A stretch of 64,000 nucleotides of DNA from Candidatus Daviesbacteria bacterium (GTDB lineage Bacteria; Patescibacteriota; Microgenomatia; Daviesbacterales; UBA10151): contig JACPDA010000004.1 in assembly GCA_016184225.1 (NCBI GenBank), forward strand, positions 474,763 through 538,762, given 5' to 3'. Position numbers and translations under genes: made by a program. Below are positions 56,664-64,000 of the stretch, piece by piece (positions within the stretch are counted from its first letter, which is position 1; every line of letters begins with the position of its first letter). Below the pieces are notes generated by a model. It had not been told where the DNA came from. It did no database searches and was given only the letters and a program-made list of their open reading frames with translations.

Positions 56664-56737
56664 GGATCCGTAGCTCAGTTGGTTAGAGCGCTTCGTTCAC
56701 ATCGAAGAGGTCAGAAGTTCGAGTCTTCTCGGGTCCA
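56664..56737 (+). tRNA. tRNA-Val (anticodon CAC)
   Basis: Manual fold. Acceptor GGATCCG/CGGGTCC (7 bp, one G-U). D-arm GCTC-AGTTGGTTA-GAGC. Anticodon arm CTTCG-TTCACAT-CGAAG with CAC at positions 34-36. T-arm AGAAG-TTCGAGT-CTTCT. Discriminator A; CCA not encoded. Confidence 0.85.
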
Positions 56738-56963
56738 CTTTTAGGGATTCTCCGGAATCCTGCGTAGGCCTGCTCTGCCCGCCTAGCCGCGAGGCTGGCA
56801 AAGCCCTGATTGTACTCCACAATTTTGAACTTTTCTTCGAAAAGTTCGTTTTTCTTTTTCTTGTAAGTTTCAGAATCTGTAACTTGGTCTAAGTAACCAT
56901 CCAAGCATATAAATCTGAACATTAATCTTAACTGAAATAAGTTGTGGTATAGTTCAGTAACAG

Positions 56964-57557
56964 ATGGCTATAGTTATTTCAGCAGATGAGATTAAAAAGG
57001 AATTGAAAGGTTACACTCCTAACCTTGCAGAAAAGTTTCATGCTGAATCTGCAAAAATGGCTGATCAAGAATTCGAAAAAGAAATTAAGAATACCTCGTA
57101 TAAAGAGATAATTTTAGTCTGCGGCGGATCGGCTTCTGGAAAAAGTGAGTTTTTAGCTACCCAACTAGCTGATAGGGAGAGCGTAATTTTCGATGGTACC
57201 TTATCCTCAACAAAAAGAGCAGAAAGAAAACTTAAAAAAATTATTAAAGAGAGTAAAACGCCGATAATTTACGCAGTAATACCGGATGATTTAAAAAGAG
57301 CTTTCATTGCATTCTTAAGGAGAGATAGAAAATTTAGAGATACTCATTTTTACAGAACACATTCCAGTTCAAGGAAAACATTGCTTTGGATCGCCTTAAA
57401 TTATCCGAAAGTGGAAATAAATATTGTAGAGAGTTCCTACACAAGTTCCAAAGGACTTCAATTTATCAGGATAAAGCTTGATAACAGGCAAAAGCTAATT
57501 GAGTATTTGATTGGTTTGCAAATGACAGAAGATGATATAATTAAGCAAACAATATAA
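56964..57557 (+). CDS. P-loop kinase of the zeta-toxin / chloramphenicol-phosphotransferase-like superfamily
   Basis: Walker A LVCGGSASGKS at residue ~50, then ESVIFDGTL (the Asp-after-P-loop arrangement of zeta/CPT kinases); 197 aa. Confidence 0.55.
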   Translation: MAIVISADEIKKELKGYTPNLAEKFHAESAKMADQEFEKEIKNTSYKEIILVCGGSASGKSEFLATQLADRESVIFDGTLSSTKRAERKLKKIIKESKTPIIYAVIPDDLKRAFIAFLRRDRKFRDTHFYRTHSSSRKTLLWIALNYPKVEINIVESSYTSSKGLQFIRIKLDNRQKLIEYLIGLQMTEDDIIKQTI

Positions 57558-57572
57558 ACATAAACCCCAATT

Positions 57573-57875
57573 ATGAAAAAAATATTCTATAAAACAAATC
57601 AGAATGATCCTCAGGTAAGAGCATATAAAGAAGCGGTTGAGAGAGGCAGACAAGATCACCATGTTGTATATAAGGATGATTCGTGGAGAGTAATTCGCGG
57701 TGATGCACAAAGACCACTAGAAACATTCAGCACACAAGAAGAAGCTATAAAACGAGCCAAATTAATTGCTAGAAGTCAAGGTACAGCAGTATATATACAT
57801 GGAGTTGATGGAAGAATTAGAGAAAGAGAAAGTTATGGAAATGATCCATTTCCTCCAAGAAACGTAACTCATTAA
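57573..57875 (+). CDS. DUF2188 domain protein
   Basis: HHVVYKDDSWRVIRGDAQRPLETFSTQEEAIKRAKLIARSQGTAVYIHGVDGRIRERESYGNDPFPP matches what I remember of the DUF2188 consensus. Confidence 0.6.
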   Translation: MKKIFYKTNQNDPQVRAYKEAVERGRQDHHVVYKDDSWRVIRGDAQRPLETFSTQEEAIKRAKLIARSQGTAVYIHGVDGRIRERESYGNDPFPPRNVTH

Positions 57876-57906
57876 GGTTTATTATTGTAAACCTGAAAGG
57901 AGAAAA

Positions 57907-57927
57907 CCGCGGACTTTCAGTCCGCGG
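57907..57927. terminator. bidirectional terminator hairpin between convergent genes
   Basis: CCGCGGACT-TTC-AGTCCGCGG perfect 9-bp GC-rich stem. On the minus strand it is followed by TTTTCTCCTTTC. A second hairpin GGTTTA-N6-TAAACC lies at 57876-57893. Confidence 0.5.
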
Positions 57928-58150
57928 AAGTCTATAAAAATCGCGCGCATTGTGCTTTCTGCCTTTTCAAAAAATAAAGACGTGGCCGAGGGCCAATAGA
58001 GCGAGGTTGTCCTGCCTGCCGGCAAGGCAGTGATTACAGGTTTAGGTAGAAAACAGATAGAGCTGGACGCGAGCGACGCCTACATCGATTGAAATTTCGT
58101 TCGGATTTGTCGATATAGGTCCACAGATTGGGATTTTGGATAGTTAAGGC

Positions 58151-58681
58151 TCAAAATTGTGGTAATTGCCTTTGGTGGGCAATCTGTTTCAGGGCTTTCT
58201 TTGTGTATGTGTTTAGTCCATAGACCCCGGAGAGTAGATTGATTGCTGAATCAACAAATGCTGGTAGCCAATTAACTCCGGTGCCGAGTCTCTCCTCCAG
58301 ATTTAAAGACTCTGCTCTCATCATCCTCACAACATCCAGTGAAGTAATTCTTGATCTCCTGGCTATACCGAAGGCTTTTTCTAATGATCCCTCTGCCTCC
58401 GCTTTATTCATTTGAGCTCCTGGAAATTCTACATTATGGCCAAATGTCTCGGCCAATACTACGGATTGGTCTTGTCTCCAACCTTCTGCAGCTTTATTGA
58501 AAGCTATCAACCCTGTTCTTTCCCACCACTGCCTGGTTGGAGCGGGTACTTTTACTTGTACTTGTTCTCCTGCAGGTTTTCTAGACCTCCTCGGCCGCAG
58601 AGTCTGTTTACCAGTGTCTAAGTTTGTCACCAGTTCCATACCCATACCTTCAAATGATCCCTGACCCTCTTTTCCTACCAT
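58151..58681 (-). CDS. hypothetical protein with anomalously high GC (~45%) relative to neighbours
   Basis: 176-aa ORF with no motif recognised. Composition is visibly G+C richer than the flanking ~30-35% GC genes. Confidence 0.5.
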   Translation of the reverse strand: MVGKEGQGSFEGMGMELVTNLDTGKQTLRPRRSRKPAGEQVQVKVPAPTRQWWERTGLIAFNKAAEGWRQDQSVVLAETFGHNVEFPGAQMNKAEAEGSLEKAFGIARRSRITSLDVVRMMRAESLNLEERLGTGVNWLPAFVDSAINLLSGVYGLNTYTKKALKQIAHQRQLPQF

Positions 58682-58762
58682 ATGCTAATTATACCTTATT
58701 TTATCTTCTCTGATCAAGAAACATTATTTAAATCATTTGCCACACCATATATTTAACATTAT

Positions 58763-58840
58763 CCCTAGGTTTGAAGCTATCCAACCCCTGGGGTTGGAAT
58801 TTGTTTTGGTGTCCTATCTAAGCCACCTCCCAGGTGGGAT
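58763..58840 (+). repeat. structured repeat element, copy B (as 39510-39546 plus an inserted CCAACCCC-T-GGGGTTGG hairpin)
   Basis: CCCTAGGT...[38-nt insert]...GGTGTCCTATCTAAGCCACCT-CCC-AGGTGG; lies in the 237-nt gap between two minus-strand genes. Confidence 0.5.
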
Positions 58841-58918
58841 TGGGGTTACGTAATTTATAAAATCTTTTGTTCTGTTTGGACTGTAGTATCTAGACATAAT
58901 TAATTTTCTTTATAAATA

Positions 58919-59392
58919 TTATCTTTTCTTCTTTTTAGATACCCTTTTCTTTGTCTTTGTAGTTTTTGAAGTAGGCTGTGGAGAAGTATCAGCTATAGGT
59001 GCTTGCGTACCTTCAATAAAAGCTTGATCAATATCATATTCTGTTATGCCTTTAAACCCATTCTTTTGACATAAGTTATAAATTAATCCAACAATTTTTC
59101 TTTTTATATTTGCCGGGGATTGATTTGGATCATTTATTTGTTCATATAAGTTACTAATCTGTTTGCGGGTTTCTTTATCTTTATGAAAAGTTATTGAAAC
59201 TTTATTAAGTGATCTCCTAAACTCAGATGAAGCATAATCTCCACGAAAAGTCATTAAATCTCTTATAGCTTCATTTTTAGTCCTTTTTTCAAAATCTCTT
59301 TTACCAACAAACCATATTACAAGTCCCGCGACTAACGGGCCAACTAATCCTTGTATTAAAATACCTATAAAATTATTATCCCAACCATTCAT
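58919..59392 (-). CDS. hypothetical membrane-anchored protein with a lysine-rich C-terminal tail
   Basis: One N-terminal TM helix (FIGILIQGLVGPLVAGLVIWFVG); C-terminus TKTKKRVSKKKKR. Its start overlaps the stop of the upstream GIY-YIG gene by 4 nt. Confidence 0.5.
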   Translation of the reverse strand: MNGWDNNFIGILIQGLVGPLVAGLVIWFVGKRDFEKRTKNEAIRDLMTFRGDYASSEFRRSLNKVSITFHKDKETRKQISNLYEQINDPNQSPANIKRKIVGLIYNLCQKNGFKGITEYDIDQAFIEGTQAPIADTSPQPTSKTTKTKKRVSKKKKR

Positions 59393-59754
59393 ATTAAATT
59401 TACAACGATCGGTTGGGCAGCGGGAGACCTTTCTCCTATTAATGGACTGTAACTATCAAACAAATAAGCTTCTATGCCATCTCTAGATTGTTTATCAACA
59501 ATAGCCCATGTTACCTTCAATTGACCGTATGTTCCATACCGAGTTATTTCTGGGTTATTTTTATGCTCCTGTAATCTTAATCCAATATGACCTTGTCCAA
59601 CCCTAATAACTTTTGCTCCGCCTGCACCTACATACCAAATTATATATACACCTTCTTTACTCAGGAAATAAGGGGCGTTCAGGTTTAATCGCAGGAGGTC
59701 AAACCATTGATTATTATTTGAATTCTTTACCCAATGTACATTAAGACTTTGCAT
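59389..59754 (-). CDS. small GIY-YIG nuclease-domain protein (YhbQ/COG2827-like)
   Basis: GVYIIWYVG...KVIRVGQGHIGLRLQEHKN and a later ...RDGIEAYLFDSYSPLIGE fit the GIY / YIG / Arg / Glu core. Confidence 0.55.
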   Translation of the reverse strand: MQSLNVHWVKNSNNNQWFDLLRLNLNAPYFLSKEGVYIIWYVGAGGAKVIRVGQGHIGLRLQEHKNNPEITRYGTYGQLKVTWAIVDKQSRDGIEAYLFDSYSPLIGERSPAAQPIVVNLI

Positions 59755-59934
59755 AACTCGTTAATCTATTATAACCGAAGTTTTAAACTTTGTATTTAGT
59801 TTTTTGTATAGCTTCCATTTTTATCCTCCACAATTTTAATTTCTTCCGGCATTAGGCCGTAGAGTTTATAAGCAGAGCTTCTCAGCTCGCTTACAGCTTG
59901 CTGATAAACTAATTGATATATCTTCTTTTATCCT

Positions 59935-62900
59935 TTAAATATTCTTAACTTGTGCATAAAATTTATTCTTCTGACAAAGACTTTTTACAAAATCTGCATT
60001 AGAAACTTTATCTTTAGGTACACCCACATTAAAGTAGAGGCAAAAGACTAAATCGTCTATAAGGTCTTTGATCTCCTTTTGTTTCTCAAAGTCAATTACA
60101 GGAAAGGATATCAGGTCCGATAGCATAATTGTTTTGTTTTCTAATTCGAGACCATCTTGGCCATACTTTGCCTCAATAACTTTCTTTACCAGAGTGAAAT
60201 CTTTCTTAATAGGCAGCTCTATTGACTCCATATCCTTTTCCAATATTAGTTTGTTTACTTCAACGCTAACTTTGTCAAACTTTTGAACCATTATTTTTGA
60301 AAAATCAACAAAGTCTGACAATAGAATTCTCTCTAACTTTAGGAGACCTCCAGTAAGCCTAATAGTTTCTTCCTTAATGTGTTGGTTTTGATCAGTTATT
60401 TTTGGGATTCTTACAAATTCCTTAATTGCTTTTATTGGAATTAAGAATTCTTTCTCTTGCTCATTTTGGAGGTTTTTTAGAATTAATTTGTTTATAGGAG
60501 AGTTCAATAAAGAAAGGAGATAAAAAATCTCTTCCCTATTATCTGAACAAATAATTGATGCCTTTCCCATATAAAAAATAATGTGATGATCAGTAAAATA
60601 AAATTTATCCGGATTTTTAACACTCCAGACAATTTTGTATTGTTGATCTAATGTAATATACCCTTGATTATTTTGGGTAAGTTTAATTTTATTTCTATCT
60701 TTTGGATAAAACGCTTTCGGTATAAAACTAGAATAATTATAAAAAGATTTGAAATCCAACAATTCGTAAGACTCTTCACTATTGTTAATTGTTGTTATAT
60801 ATTTAGGATTTAAGACAAATCCAATATCAAAATAGAATCTACTGTTAAAATTGTGTCTTGCTAAAACATGGTTATAATAGATAGAAATTTCTTCACTTTT
60901 TCTCTTGTATTCAATATGGAAATCTAAATATTCCTTATTCTGTTGAATGAAATTCCAATTTGCGAGGTTTTGAAGAAGTTGTGATTGTAAGATTTTATTT
61001 TTTGTTGTCTTTTCTTTCCGAGCTATTTTTCTGAAGGTTTCCTCAATATTTTCACCTGAACCTAAATGATTCCAAATCTCCACTTCCTGCAAATCTCTCG
61101 GCCTATTTTTCGAAACAATCAGAATCAAACTTGACGTAGCAATTGGCTTATTCTGTTTAAGTCCCCTTCCTAAGAACATCTTGCCGCTAAAGGTGATAAT
61201 TTTTTCAATAGTTGTAAACCGAGCAAGGTGATACCTAATTACATCCAAATCGCCCGATGTTAGTACGGTCTGAGGAATGATAAAACAAAGCTTTCCATTA
61301 TCTTTTAATAAAGCTAGTCCTAGAGCAATAAAAAATGCGTAAAAATTTGGTTTTGGTGAATACCTTTTCTGTCTTTCAGAAACACTATGTAGATTTAATC
61401 CATAAACATCACTTAATTTAACCTTACCTTGTTTCATTAGGCTGAAAATTAGAATACCCTGTTTTGAGCACTCGTTATAAGAAATGTATGGTGGGTTACC
61501 AATTACGTAGTCAAATCGTCTTCGTGATGGGCGCATACTTTGTTTCATATCCGCCAGGTCACTCTTTTCTCGCATATAACTTTCAAATTCAAAATCTAAC
61601 TTTCTACTATCAAACAAGACTTGTTGACCACCTATAACATCGATATCATTTATAGTATTTTTTAATCCAGCGTCTATAAACTCTGCAATCGAATCCTTGG
61701 TCCAAAAAACTTTTATTTTCTTATCAATTGGATTGTTGTATTTCTCGTTAATAATAAGCGGTAGCATTCGCATTAAAATATTCATCTCGGCCAAATAGAG
61801 TGGGAATTCTTCAATATCTAATCCAAAGACGTTATTATTTATCAATTCCTCAATTTTTCTTGAGGTATCTTCTGATCCGTTAGGTACCGCATTTAAAATT
61901 TGATCTGTTGCACTATATAAGAAAGTCCCACTGCCACAAGACGGATCTATTATGGAAATATAGTCTCCGTCGGGATCATGATCCAATCGTTTTATTAAAC
62001 TATCTGGTGTATATCCAACTTGTTCTAGCATAAAGTTAACGATAGCTGGATCTGTAAAATACTGTCCTTTCTTGGATTCTTCATATAATTCTTTTAGGTA
62101 ATTTTCATAAATATAGCCAAAGATTTCATTTCTAACGTTTGCAAAATTGTATTTTTTGATGAAGATGAAGATATCAAGCCATGGAGATACATCAGAAAGG
62201 CTATTTTCAACCCTATGGTAGAGTTCTTGAATTTTGTCTTTGATAAACGCCTGCTCTTTAGTAAATGGTCTATATATATTTTTCGAAATATTTGCAGAAA
62301 TTCCCTCAATAATCCCCAGAATATCTTTATATCTTTTTTGTTTCAAAAACTGATGAATCTTTTCAACGAAACTCTCAAATTCTGTTGCGAAATCGTCAAA
62401 CTCGTTATCGACCAATGTCTTATACAGGATAAACTGTATAATATAGGCATAAGTAAGCTCGATTGCTTTCTTTTCACTTAATTTATTGTCTGAACTTTCA
62501 AGATACCCTTCAATCTTGAGTTTATTTTTAAAGCCTTCGATAAGCTTAGTTATATCTTCAAAGAAAAGTTGCCTGTTGTTATCAACGTGCAGTTTGGTTT
62601 CTTTGAGAAGCGCTAACTGCCCCACCTTTTCAAAAAATGATAGGTAATAAAACTCCGGCTTGATATACTCCTTCCAAAAGGTGATAAACAACTGTGTTTT
62701 ATCGAGCATATCCCTAAGCGTGAAGATACGATATACATTGTTGTTATAAAAACGCCAAGTGAAACCATCGGTTAAAATACCGTAGTGTTTGTCGAAATCC
62801 TTTTGGTAGTTAAAGAGTTGTTTTTCACCAACTTGAATATTTTTATAGCACTCAACTTCAATAGGAATTGCTATTTCAGGATTGATATAGATATAAAAAT

Positions 62901-63117
62901 CTGCCCTACGTTTCTCTTTAGCATTCTTCTCATGTATAAATTCATTCCTTCTATCTTGATTATTTGTAGATAATTTGCCCTCTTTCAAGCTAAAAAGATC
63001 ATCAGATGACAATATATCTTTAACGAAACTTTGAACGCCGGTACCAACTTCTTGCTTTTGATAATAGTCTTTTTCTTGATTCCATTTCCTTTTTAGTCCT
63101 GATATTTTTAAACTCAT
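59935..63117 (-). CDS. type IIL/IIG restriction-modification fusion enzyme (MmeI-like): N-terminal PD-(D/E)xK nuclease + gamma-class N6-adenine methyltransferase + target-recognition domain
   Basis: N-terminal RADFYIYINPEIAIPIEVECYK (D...E.E..K) and YGILTDGFTWRFY; MTase motif I IIDPSCGSGTFL; motif IV DYVIGNPPYISYN; ~400-aa C-terminal region; 1060 aa. Confidence 0.75.
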   Translation of the reverse strand: MSLKISGLKRKWNQEKDYYQKQEVGTGVQSFVKDILSSDDLFSLKEGKLSTNNQDRRNEFIHEKNAKEKRRADFYIYINPEIAIPIEVECYKNIQVGEKQLFNYQKDFDKHYGILTDGFTWRFYNNNVYRIFTLRDMLDKTQLFITFWKEYIKPEFYYLSFFEKVGQLALLKETKLHVDNNRQLFFEDITKLIEGFKNKLKIEGYLESSDNKLSEKKAIELTYAYIIQFILYKTLVDNEFDDFATEFESFVEKIHQFLKQKRYKDILGIIEGISANISKNIYRPFTKEQAFIKDKIQELYHRVENSLSDVSPWLDIFIFIKKYNFANVRNEIFGYIYENYLKELYEESKKGQYFTDPAIVNFMLEQVGYTPDSLIKRLDHDPDGDYISIIDPSCGSGTFLYSATDQILNAVPNGSEDTSRKIEELINNNVFGLDIEEFPLYLAEMNILMRMLPLIINEKYNNPIDKKIKVFWTKDSIAEFIDAGLKNTINDIDVIGGQQVLFDSRKLDFEFESYMREKSDLADMKQSMRPSRRRFDYVIGNPPYISYNECSKQGILIFSLMKQGKVKLSDVYGLNLHSVSERQKRYSPKPNFYAFFIALGLALLKDNGKLCFIIPQTVLTSGDLDVIRYHLARFTTIEKIITFSGKMFLGRGLKQNKPIATSSLILIVSKNRPRDLQEVEIWNHLGSGENIEETFRKIARKEKTTKNKILQSQLLQNLANWNFIQQNKEYLDFHIEYKRKSEEISIYYNHVLARHNFNSRFYFDIGFVLNPKYITTINNSEESYELLDFKSFYNYSSFIPKAFYPKDRNKIKLTQNNQGYITLDQQYKIVWSVKNPDKFYFTDHHIIFYMGKASIICSDNREEIFYLLSLLNSPINKLILKNLQNEQEKEFLIPIKAIKEFVRIPKITDQNQHIKEETIRLTGGLLKLERILLSDFVDFSKIMVQKFDKVSVEVNKLILEKDMESIELPIKKDFTLVKKVIEAKYGQDGLELENKTIMLSDLISFPVIDFEKQKEIKDLIDDLVFCLYFNVGVPKDKVSNADFVKSLCQKNKFYAQVKNI

Positions 63118-63129
63118 ATTTTCTTGCCT

Positions 63130-63152
63130 AATTATTGCACAAAGGATGGTTA
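63130..63152 (-). promoter_or_regulatory. conserved promoter/leader cassette, copy 1 (upstream of the R-M gene)
   Basis: ATTATTGCACAAAGGATGGTTAG on +. On the minus strand it reads CTAACCATCCTTTGTGCAATAAT-TAGGCAAGAAAAT-ATG. Confidence 0.5.
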
Positions 63153-63354
63153 GGGTCTAGGGGATAGGGTATAGTTGTTATAAATACAATACATGTCAAG
63201 GGGGTTAAAATAGATCATCTTAAGGCTACTTATTCGGGTTATATTTGTATTCCAACTTAGAATGTGGTAGAATATTGTCACAAAGACCCTGTTTCCGAAT
63301 TGTCACCGTATGGTGCGCGTTCCAAACTAACGTTTGGATAGGGACAGGGTCGAA

Positions 63355-63943
63355 TCATTTAAAATCCCAAATATCTTCAATTCTTTTTACTTCCTCGAAT
63401 TTATGAAGATAATCTTTATTTTTACCTACAAAGGTTGCATGTATACTACCGGCTATTACATCTGCAAGCTGAATTAAAGTATTCTGCTTTGAATCGGCGA
63501 ATTTTAAATCGCTAAATATTTTGTTATAATTGGTTACGTAGAGATTTTTCTCCTCGCTTATCAAATTTTAACTTAGCCTTTTTGATAAACCCTTTACTCT
63601 GTTTAAGAACCTGCATAATGATATAGTTATAAAAATCTTCCTTATAATTTCGTAGTCTCGGACTATGAATGATCTCTTTCCTGACAACTATTGCTCGTAT
63701 GCGAAATTTAAAATTCCTAACTGTTTCAATAAATTGTTTCTTAAAATTTTTATCCATTTTGTTAAATTTGAATTCATAATAATCTGAAACTTTTAATTTT
63801 CTTCGTAGTTCCTTAATTGCAAGTGAAGTTTTCTCAGCTTCTAGCGGGTCATCAAATACCGCAAGCGCTATAACAAAGCACTTGCTTGAACCTTTTTCCA
63901 GTTTAAATCCAGGATCTCCGGAATCATCAATGAAAACTAGCAT
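63355..63943 (-). pseudogene. DUF3800 family gene interrupted by a frameshift (two overlapping ORFs 63524-63979 and 63355-63564)
   Basis: N-terminal MLVFIDDSGDPG... (the DUF3800 start) in one frame and C-terminal ...SKQNTLIQLADVIAGSIH (the DUF3800 QLAD motif) in another. The frames switch near the T5/A5 run at 63546-63550. Likely true start is the ATG at 63943. Confidence 0.55.
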
Positions 63944-63977
63944 TTTCTTGCTTAAGCGCGAAGCGCGAGCTTTGCTC

Positions 63978-64000
63978 ATTATTGCACAGAGGATGGTTAG
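63978..64000 (-). promoter_or_regulatory. conserved promoter/leader cassette, copy 2 (upstream of the DUF3800 gene)
   Basis: ATTATTGCACAGAGGATGGTTAG on +, with one mismatch to copy 1. The downstream leader TTAAGCAAGAAAATG is also shared, interrupted by a CGCGCTT x2 insert. Confidence 0.5.

Follow-up and report, generated by a model that had tools for sequence, protein, structure and literature searches.

The window of DNA considered here comprises 64,000 nucleotides (nt) from Candidatus Daviesbacteria bacterium (NCBI GenBank assembly GCA_016184225.1, contig JACPDA010000004.1, positions 474,763 to 538,762 of the forward strand), an ultra-small groundwater bacterium of the Patescibacteriota. 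Towards its 3' end, directly behind a tRNA-Val(CAC) gene, lies an island of accessory genes, 7.4 kb in length, which runs from 56739 to ~64105 and is an acquired insertion with foreign composition. The right edge of the island falls ~105 nt past window base 64000, and the working sequence consisted of the window together with 6 kb taken from Logan contig L001, amounting to 70,039 nt. Positions are those of the window throughout, and the handles beginning with L and P denote retrieved loci or contigs and database proteins, respectively.

The tRNA-Val locus and its absence from relatives

Upstream of tRNA-Val only core genes are found, as an original prediction made from the window had stated, and Pfam confirms the set of dcw, ribosomal and lepB genes. 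The dcw cluster consists of FtsI/PBP, MurE, MurA, MurF, MraY, FtsW, MurG, FtsQ, FtsA and FtsZ. It is followed, in the direction of tRNA-Val, by the isoleucyl-tRNA synthetase IleRS, a second FtsW protein (RodA/FtsW), L21, L27, ParB and finally the signal peptidase LepB, which is encoded on the minus strand. The list of genes that had been given for the region downstream of the tRNA, namely a kinase, DUF2188, an orphan, a GIY-YIG protein, a restriction-modification (R-M) enzyme and DUF3800, is essentially correct, with DUF6680 missing from it (Table 1). The DUF3800-IX RNA, the relic of an R-M gene end and the relic of a serine recombinase gene had also been overlooked. The flip in strand polarity is borne out by six minus-strand genes at 58151-63979 and by a negative guanine-cytosine (GC) skew. 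The description of the spacers as long and structured applies to two of the three that were tested, 57876-58150 (minus strand) and 56739-56963 (plus strand), which form significantly more stable folds than their shuffled counterparts (z = -3.85 and -3.75, respectively), and does not apply to the third. Rfam gave no family over the GC-rich spacers 57876-58150 and 58682-58918, and no homology was detected for the first of these.

Table 1. Features of the tRNA-Val locus in window coordinates; the last row refers to two comparison loci
Feature	Position	Strand	Evidence or remark
tRNA-Val(CAC), left island edge	56664-56738	+	ARAGORN; Rfam RF00005, 69 bits
Relic of the 3' end of a large serine recombinase gene	56798-56910	-	blastn, tblastn, phmmer; ~110 nt, adjoins tRNA-Val 3' end
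Zeta-toxin-like P-loop kinase, 197 amino acids (aa)	56964-57557	+	Pfam family, AlphaFold2 (AF2), Foldseek
DUF2188 protein, 100 aa	57573-57875	+	Pfam PF09954 E = 6e-20; PADLOC PDC-S16 E = 2e-27; phrog_3220
Terminator hairpin after orph176	57907-57927	-	Terminator scan, fold; also assembly branch point
orph176, conserved 176-aa protein	58151-58681	-	13 relatives (plus own entry) at 54-71% identity
DUF6680 protein, 157 aa, cassette gene 2	58919-59392	-	Pfam PF20385 E = 1e-9; hydrophobic N-terminal stretch (by eye)
GIY-YIG-fold protein, 121 aa, cassette gene 1	59389-59754	-	118 homologues; AF2 pLDDT (predicted local distance difference test) 95
C-terminus relic of an earlier R-M/methyltransferase gene, 43 codons	59796-59927	-	Translation ..QLVY..KLYGLMPEEIKIVED.. 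up to a stop codon
Type IIG-like R-M enzyme, 1060 aa	59935-63117	-	Pfam Eco57I E = 5e-20, MmeI_Mtase; PADLOC REase_MTase_IIG E = 4e-18
Leader/promoter repeat copy 1, upstream of type IIG gene	63123-63170	-	94% identical to copy 2 over 47 nt
DUF3800-IX RNA motif	63285-63355	+	Rfam RF02968, 65.4 bits vs gathering 36.8, E = 5e-12
DUF3800 (RNase H-like) pseudogene	63355-63943	-	phrog_9243 positions 2-143 and 173-217 in two different frames
Leader repeat copy 2, upstream of DUF3800	63970-64000, on to ~64017 past the window	-	Repeat match
Recombinase genes (Zn_ribbon_recom)	L015 22054-22868; L016 22149-22934	-	3' end abuts tRNA-Gly(CCC) 3' end, far end of polysaccharide cluster

The locus was compared with 80 IleRS-anchored loci from GTDB species representatives, in which IleRS is 51-77% identical. 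The gene order IleRS-FtsW-L21-L27-ParB-LepB-tRNA-Val is common to Daviesbacteria and well beyond. In relatives at the level of Daviesbacteria, tRNA-Val is followed by genes for a flippase, a methyltransferase, a GT2 protein, a Wzy-like protein, a mannosyltransferase and a Big_6 protein, a series that usually ends at tRNA-Gly(CCC). In 12 relatives tRNA-Val is separated from the flippase gene by 13-92 nt; in three others the gap is 0.9-3.9 kb, and here it reaches 7384 nt. Nucleotide homology with the relatives, as seen by BLAST, is lost at 56738, the last base of tRNA-Val, and comes back at 64106-64141, and beyond the window end the polysaccharide cluster is found with proteins that are 47-80% identical to those of the best relative, L014. 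A tblastn search with seven island genes gave no match at the locus in any of the 80 relatives, which together with the break in homology upholds tRNA-Val as the edge of an accessory/defence island. The prediction had allowed that the content might turn out to be ancestral and shared by all relatives; the same content was found downstream of tRNA-Val in 0 of the 80, and because of this the island is regarded as acquired.

The composition of the island is also distinct. Its GC content is 0.346, as against 0.394 in the window upstream and 0.383 in the sequence after the island, and the 5-kb interval with the lowest GC content in the 70 kb is 58751-63750 (z ~ -3.3). Tetranucleotide usage deviates most (z = 3.2) over the type IIG gene, which is also the lowest in GC. 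At third codon positions, the GC content (GC3) is 0.16-0.30 in island genes and 0.31-0.41 in flanking genes (FtsZ aside), with orph176 at 0.37. Within the island the GC content of individual genes is heterogeneous, ranging from 0.31 to 0.45.

That the region is ancestral and has been lost repeatedly in the relatives is most unlikely. Such a history would agree with locus L104 from the Patescibacteria (~70% IleRS identity), where a homologue of orph176 occupies the same locus, ~370 nt away from tRNA-Val, with a protein identity of 65% that is similar to that of the core genes. Against it stand the 12 relatives across the group with a 13-92-nt spacer, which would call for many precise deletions, the atypical composition, and the presence of relics of mobile and replaced genes.

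The tRNA-Val site is an insertion hotspot that is filled differently in different Daviesbacteria. The genes identified downstream of tRNA-Val in relatives include those for MazE/PIN, DUF433/DUF5615, HicA, Fic, HD, GIY-YIG and PD-(D/E)XK proteins, whilst others are unannotated and membrane- or envelope-related.

The tRNA-Val gene itself is altered in some relatives. In L021 (16059-16247) a tRNA-Val of the L022 type is split in two places, the D-loop holding a 43-nt insert with two hairpins and the anticodon loop an entire second tRNA-Val gene, and L030 (15992-16146) carries the same 5' tRNA-Val fragment and insert upstream of its own tRNA-Val. Rfam gave no family for the insert of L021 and L030. 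A 5' fragment of tRNA-Val is found in L053, and in L080 (16090-16444) a small GIY-YIG open reading frame (ORF) separates a truncated tRNA from the new tRNA-Val that follows. In L016 (16154-16260) a tRNA-Val that is 92% identical to that of the window is inverted together with its promoter, whereas for L034 (15926-15963) ARAGORN calls no tRNA-Val in the interval from LepB to the flippase gene.

In the NCBI assembly, which is a metagenome-assembled genome, the island genes have consecutive accessions on a single contig of 769,731 bp. Identical entries exist for LepB (MBI2196551), DUF2188 (MBI2196553), DUF6680, GIY-YIG and type IIG (MBI2196555-MBI2196557) and DUF3800 (MBI2196559), whilst the kinase and the 176-aa protein correspond to locus tags HYU45_02955 and HYU45_02965, respectively. 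Independent Logan contigs from more than 10 runs reproduce the region at 100% identity. These contigs break at 56700/56712, within the tRNA, and at 57902/57930, at the terminator hairpin. Strain variation was considered as the cause of the breaks at 56700/56712 and was rejected, as stretches of tRNA-Val that are shared between species, for example with L021, explain them. The breaks at 57902/57930 imply that in the communities this 29-mer is flanked by more than one sequence, which would reflect either a strain variant that lacks the kinase/DUF2188 pair or a shared terminator.

An artefact of assembly or binning, with a chimeric join within the tRNA or at the 57902-57930 hairpin, is highly improbable. 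It would account for the fact that all Logan contigs break at these two places, with no single short-read contig covering lepB to orph176. However, contig L093 covers 56683-57930 and joins the 3' half of the tRNA to the recombinase relic and the kinase module, and the two tRNA halves come together in a well-formed acceptor stem (six Watson-Crick pairs, one G-U pair). Moreover, the independent NCBI assembly keeps the genes consecutive on its 770-kb contig, and the break in the tRNA is due to sequence shared between species.

A recombinase relic at the tRNA boundary

The sequence that adjoins the 3' end of tRNA-Val, located within a spurious ORF at 56683-56922, is homologous to the 3' end of large serine recombinase genes. 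By blastn, 56828-56901 matches L015 22394-22467 with 81% identity over 74 nt (E = 3e-13), and this L015 sequence adjoins tRNA-Gly. With tblastn, residues 259-290 of P0271 match 56815-56910 with 81% identity over 32 residues (E = 2e-11); the same query revealed no other recombinase remnant in the island, including spacers 57876-58150 and 58682-58918. The relic keeps a segment ..LDGYLDQVTDSETYKKKKNELFEEKFK.., which is fused through an internal deletion to ..VEYNQGFASLAA... A phmmer search of 1.84 billion proteins with the 55-residue relic peptide led to proteins with the domains Resolvase, Recombinase and Zn_ribbon_recom, the best being P0271 with 79% identity over the conserved stretch. All three domains are present in P0271, P0279 has Recombinase and Zn_ribbon_recom, and the fragments encoded by L015 and L016 have Zn_ribbon_recom. 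The N-terminal part of the gene, which holds the catalytic domain in P0271, is missing from the window, so that the relic is a gene fragment and not a member protein.

The position of the relic relative to tRNA-Val, and its orientation, match those of the homologues in L015 and L016 at tRNA-Gly, where GC-rich hairpins are also found at the equivalent position after the tRNA. The GC-rich hairpin region directly 3' of tRNA-Val is the tail of the recombinase gene, and this tail with its hairpins accounts for the folding of spacer 56739-56963. Judged by this homology, a large serine recombinase gene formerly stood against tRNA-Val and is now reduced to ~110 nt, and at least one mobile element would once have integrated there.

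By eye, the C-terminal tails of the database homologues P0271, P0276 and P0279 resemble antisense tRNA sequence. These tails, taken together with the genes of L015 and L016, suggest a recombinase family of the candidate phyla radiation (CPR) whose members abut tRNAs.

The locus had been described as the classic picture of integration at a tRNA 3' end. The insertion does indeed lie directly 3' of the tRNA, whereas the tyrosine integrase and tRNA-derived repeat that belong to such a picture were not found. With the relic in place, the statement that no integrase is visible within the window has to be amended, although neither the island nor the next 6 kb contains an intact integrase. The companion statement on the lack of a tRNA-derived direct repeat holds, in that no copy of the tRNA-Val 3' end with up to three mismatches exists in the window or the 6-kb extension, nor do fragments of ~60 tRNA-Val variants occur in the island. 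The sequence TTTTAGGG, present at both ends of the island, was considered as a short direct repeat and rejected, as its score is equalled or exceeded in 215 of 300 shuffles and it occurs 14 times in the 70 kb. Strand exchange by serine integrases takes place at a core of 2 bp and does not give rise to long direct repeats, and for this reason the missing direct repeat is not evidence against site-specific integration.

The proposal to look past the window end for an integrase and a repeat yielded neither in the 6-kb extension, where conserved polysaccharide synteny was found instead. A classic island of the tyrosine-integrase kind, with its integrase and tRNA-derived repeat past the window end, is thus scarcely credible. 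It would fit the position directly 3' of the tRNA and the foreign composition, but the extension holds the conserved cluster and the searches for copies and fragments of the tRNA were negative.

Cargo modules and their decay

The first gene of the island encodes a zeta-toxin-like kinase. It scores 18.1 bits with the Pfam family Zeta_toxin, for which the cut-off is 22.3, and 22 of the 24 members of its own family match (best E = 8e-7). The AF2 model (pLDDT 84) has as its top Foldseek match the Neisseria zeta_1 structure 6EPG (TMq 0.70, probability 1.0, E = 1e-6), with PezT and zeta further down the list. More than 350 homologues are found at E <= 0.001, with named matches in several CPR lineages. 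The homologues in metagenome-assembled genomes of Roizmanbacteria and Saccharimonadales are 62-64% identical, as compared with 51-57% for IleRS in loci titled with those lineages. The unusual conservation of the kinase family hints at strong constraint or at frequent transfer.

The kinase resembles that of the epsilon/zeta (PezAT) systems in its P-loop kinase fold and in the conserved Walker A motif. In contrast to these systems it is much shorter, at 197 aa, and is followed by a DUF2188 gene, and no antitoxin of the epsilon/PezA type was found next to it: there is no upstream ORF, 56739-56963 being occupied by the recombinase relic, and the only neighbour is the DUF2188 gene downstream. DUF2188 has been linked to defence in the literature, and the gene is a candidate defence gene and a possible partner of the kinase.

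The next gene, orph176, had been called a GC-anomalous orphan. Its overall GC content of 0.45 fits this description, but it is a real gene with 13 relatives and its GC3 is host-like. Homologues are found only in CPR/Patescibacteria records or on unnamed metagenome contigs, and the protein has no domain match. The idea that it is specific to tRNA-Val was rejected, as four other loci carry orph176 with no tRNA on the retrieved stretch, two of these being short contigs. Its homologues (L104 1-3100, L105, L106 and L107/L108) co-occur with HicA and a PD-(D/E)XK protein, joined in L105 and L106 by a conserved 108-aa protein.

The GIY-YIG and DUF6680 genes make up a conserved two-gene cassette. The top Foldseek match of the GIY-YIG protein is the GIY-YIG domain of UvrC (probability 1.0, TMt 0.60, E = 8e-3), whilst Pfam hidden Markov models give no match. 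Residues Y37, G53, G55 and E95 are invariant, and R51, R60 and H64 are nearly so. On the basis of its modelled fold and of the conserved Tyr, Arg and Glu, the predicted product belongs to the GIY-YIG superfamily. Nothing was found in the literature on DUF6680. Copies of the cassette that are 66-74% identical are present at the Gottesmanbacteria locus L099/L100 and in GCA_000380825.1 (L097). In L097 and L099 a DUF6680 copy with 66% identity follows the GIY-YIG gene, and more distant GIY-YIG homologues are without DUF6680.

Between the cassette and the type IIG gene is the relic of an R-M gene end, whose C-terminal motif occurs once in the 70 kb and whose DNA is 86% identical over 43 nt to L097. 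The C-terminal motif of R-M methyltransferases (..LYxLTxEEIKIVE; ..LYGLMPEEIKIVE..) is located upstream of the cassette in three of the three contexts seen. In L099 (9892-9927) it is found at the 3' end of the adjacent gene, which encodes an Eco57I/MmeI-type protein of 1211 aa, in frame and just past the called stop codon. In L097 (9251-9286) the motif is a relic ~700 nt upstream of the cassette, and a second, more degenerate copy adjoins the cassette. The gene-end relic between the type IIG gene and the cassette therefore indicates that an earlier R-M gene has been replaced. The cassette may be functionally tied to R-M gene ends, or may home next to them.

The large protein that had been described as an R-M fusion is secure as regards its methyltransferase (Eco57I, Table 1). 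Residues 533-635, including the GNPPY motif, align to M.TaqI, as is found for gamma-class N6-adenine methyltransferases. The N-terminal nuclease is less certain, since the matches of residues 60-125 to PD-(D/E)XK families (HSDR_N_2, E = 0.007; Tox-REase-9, E = 0.013) are weak and below the curated cut-offs. Searching the N-terminus against PDB sequences gave no match, and no solved structure was found outside the methyltransferase core. In the ~400 residues that follow the methyltransferase domain the sole match is to TaqI_C, with E = 0.71. The protein is similar to the type IIG enzymes MmeI and Eco57I in being a single polypeptide with a central NPPY methyltransferase and a long C-terminal region, where the target-recognition domain is expected. 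It differs from them in its sub-threshold nuclease and in its NCBI annotation, which is that of a methyltransferase only.

The decayed DUF3800 gene is, as had been proposed, a true pseudogene. It is 589 nt long, as against 624 nt in the intact allele P0268 (207 aa, at least 90% identity), and is frameshifted by the resulting 35-nt deletion. The DUF3800-IX RNA is convergent with the pseudogene and abuts its 3' end, and both its score and this adjacency agree with the family. DUF3800-associated RNA motifs were described by Weinberg et al. 2017 (PMC5737381), and the arrangement here is alike in that the DUF3800-IX motif adjoins a DUF3800 gene, by definition of the family, and differs in that the gene of the partner protein has been inactivated. 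The leader that is found upstream of both DUF3800 and the type IIG gene is a direct repeat of ~48 nt with TAGGGGATAG-like iterations, to which the copy at DUF3800 adds a GC-rich hairpin of ~21 nt. No further copy of the leader was found elsewhere among 108 fetched loci. The module of DUF3800 and RNA is presumably no longer functional.

Origin of the island and its place among known systems

The locus is probably an integrative island, specific to its lineage, composite in make-up and no longer mobile, located at a hotspot between tRNA-Val(CAC) and the envelope-polysaccharide cluster. That it is composite and decaying follows from the R-M gene-end relic, the 35-nt deletion in DUF3800 and the duplicated leader. 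An element with a large serine recombinase would have integrated immediately 3' of tRNA-Val, or into its 3' part. The recombinase gene would then have been lost almost completely, perhaps on the arrival of the zeta-kinase/DUF2188 pair, leaving the cargo fixed in place. Module swapping and decay would have followed. An R-M gene that formerly preceded the GIY-YIG/DUF6680 cassette would have given way to the type IIG gene, whose leader is now shared, as a duplicate, with the module of DUF3800 and RNA, and the 35-nt deletion would have inactivated DUF3800. With regard to function, the type IIG enzyme would be expected, by analogy, to methylate its own DNA and to cut unmodified incoming DNA, whilst the kinase with DUF2188 and the GIY-YIG nuclease with DUF6680 are candidate modules of the toxin or abortive-infection type.

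Several points weigh against this integrative origin and against the defence role. The ~110 nt that are left of the recombinase belong to the coiled-coil/C-terminal region, with no catalytic domain, and some or none of the present-day genes may have come with the recombinase element. Attachment (att) sites were not identified, nor was an intact element belonging to the relic's family seen integrated at a tRNA-Val. The presence of orph176 at tRNA-Val in L104 means that this gene may be an older resident, part of a content that predates the rest. Apart from the R-M enzyme, the proposed defence roles are drawn from family membership or lists of candidates, and within the R-M enzyme the nuclease domain is weakly supported.

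Accretion without an integrase is rather unlikely. In such a case the cargo would have been gathered piecemeal after DNA uptake, by homologous recombination via the conserved flanks, namely LepB/tRNA-Val on one side and the polysaccharide cluster on the other, and the relic would stem from an unrelated earlier element. This would fit the heterogeneous GC content of the island genes, and the independent distribution of the modules, with the GIY-YIG/DUF6680 cassette and orph176 found in other contexts. It would also fit the lack of a significant repeat flanking the island and of an integrase among the ORFs examined in the relatives' insertions at the site and in the L104 neighbourhood. However, the recombinase relic lies exactly at the tRNA-proximal edge, in the same orientation as in the intact homologues at tRNA-Gly, and the pieces of tRNA-Val found in relatives speak for site-specific events at this gene. 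Furthermore, accretion is not exclusive of an integrative island, as the latter includes later turnover of modules by recombination. A prophage or plasmid origin was rejected, with neither the kinase nor the GIY-YIG protein having relatives in IMG/VR and the GIY-YIG protein having none in phage or plasmid collections.

The integrative island shares with the tRNA-associated genomic islands of the pathogenicity-island/P4 type its insertion at a tRNA 3' end, absence from relatives, atypical composition and accessory cargo; of a tRNA-proximal integrase it has only the relic. Unlike these, the recombinase is of the serine and not the tyrosine type, there is no tRNA-derived repeat, and the island is heavily degraded and not mobile on its own. 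The tycheposons of Prochlorococcus are site-specific integrative elements whose cargo stays behind and builds up islands next to tRNA genes; a minority of them rely on large serine recombinases (bioRxiv 10.1101/2020.12.28.424599). Compared by such features, the present island is similar to the tycheposon remnants described in that work in belonging to a streamlined genome and in the partial tRNAs at the hotspot, found here in the relatives L021, L030, L053 and L080. It differs in lacking the hallmark genes (replication modules and a tyrosine recombinase), in having no partial tRNA within the window and in its phylum, which is CPR.

With defence islands the locus has in common the R-M enzyme together with DUF2188 (PDC-S16), the zeta-like kinase, the GIY-YIG nuclease and DUF3800 with its RNA, as well as the toxin-antitoxin modules of relatives at the same site. 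It differs from them in that one system, R-M, is recognised, the rest being candidates and one module a pseudogene. PADLOC reports R-M and the PDC-S16 candidate on the island, and otherwise weak matches of the kinase to DndF and of DUF6680 to Csn2. CPR bacteria have genomes of ~0.8 Mb with few recognised mobile elements, and are mostly without CRISPR. Earlier work describes groundwater CPR as densely equipped with defence systems, and the literature contained nothing relevant on islands in Daviesbacteria. As a class, the feature is expected rather than surprising: it is an ordinary genomic island with a few unusual details.

These details leave room for a broader and rather doubtful proposal, that a hitherto undescribed large serine recombinase family exists in the CPR/Patescibacteria, its genes placed tail-to-tail with tRNA genes and its elements building integrase-less defence islets in the manner of tycheposons, and that GIY-YIG/DUF6680 is a new cassette which is linked to the 3' ends of R-M methyltransferase genes or homes next to them. 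Two or three contexts stand behind each of the two ideas. The tRNA partners of the recombinase family would include tRNA-Gly in L015 and L016, tRNA-Val here and apparently other tRNAs in database homologues, whose ORFs look by eye as if they continued antisense into a tRNA.

The gain and loss of defence genes in CPR bacteria is poorly documented, and this locus provides a concrete and well-bounded example of it. The recombinase relic would record how at least one load arrived at the hotspot. In addition, the locus supplies candidate modules in the form of the zeta-like kinase with DUF2188, the GIY-YIG protein with DUF6680, and the pair of DUF3800 and its RNA.

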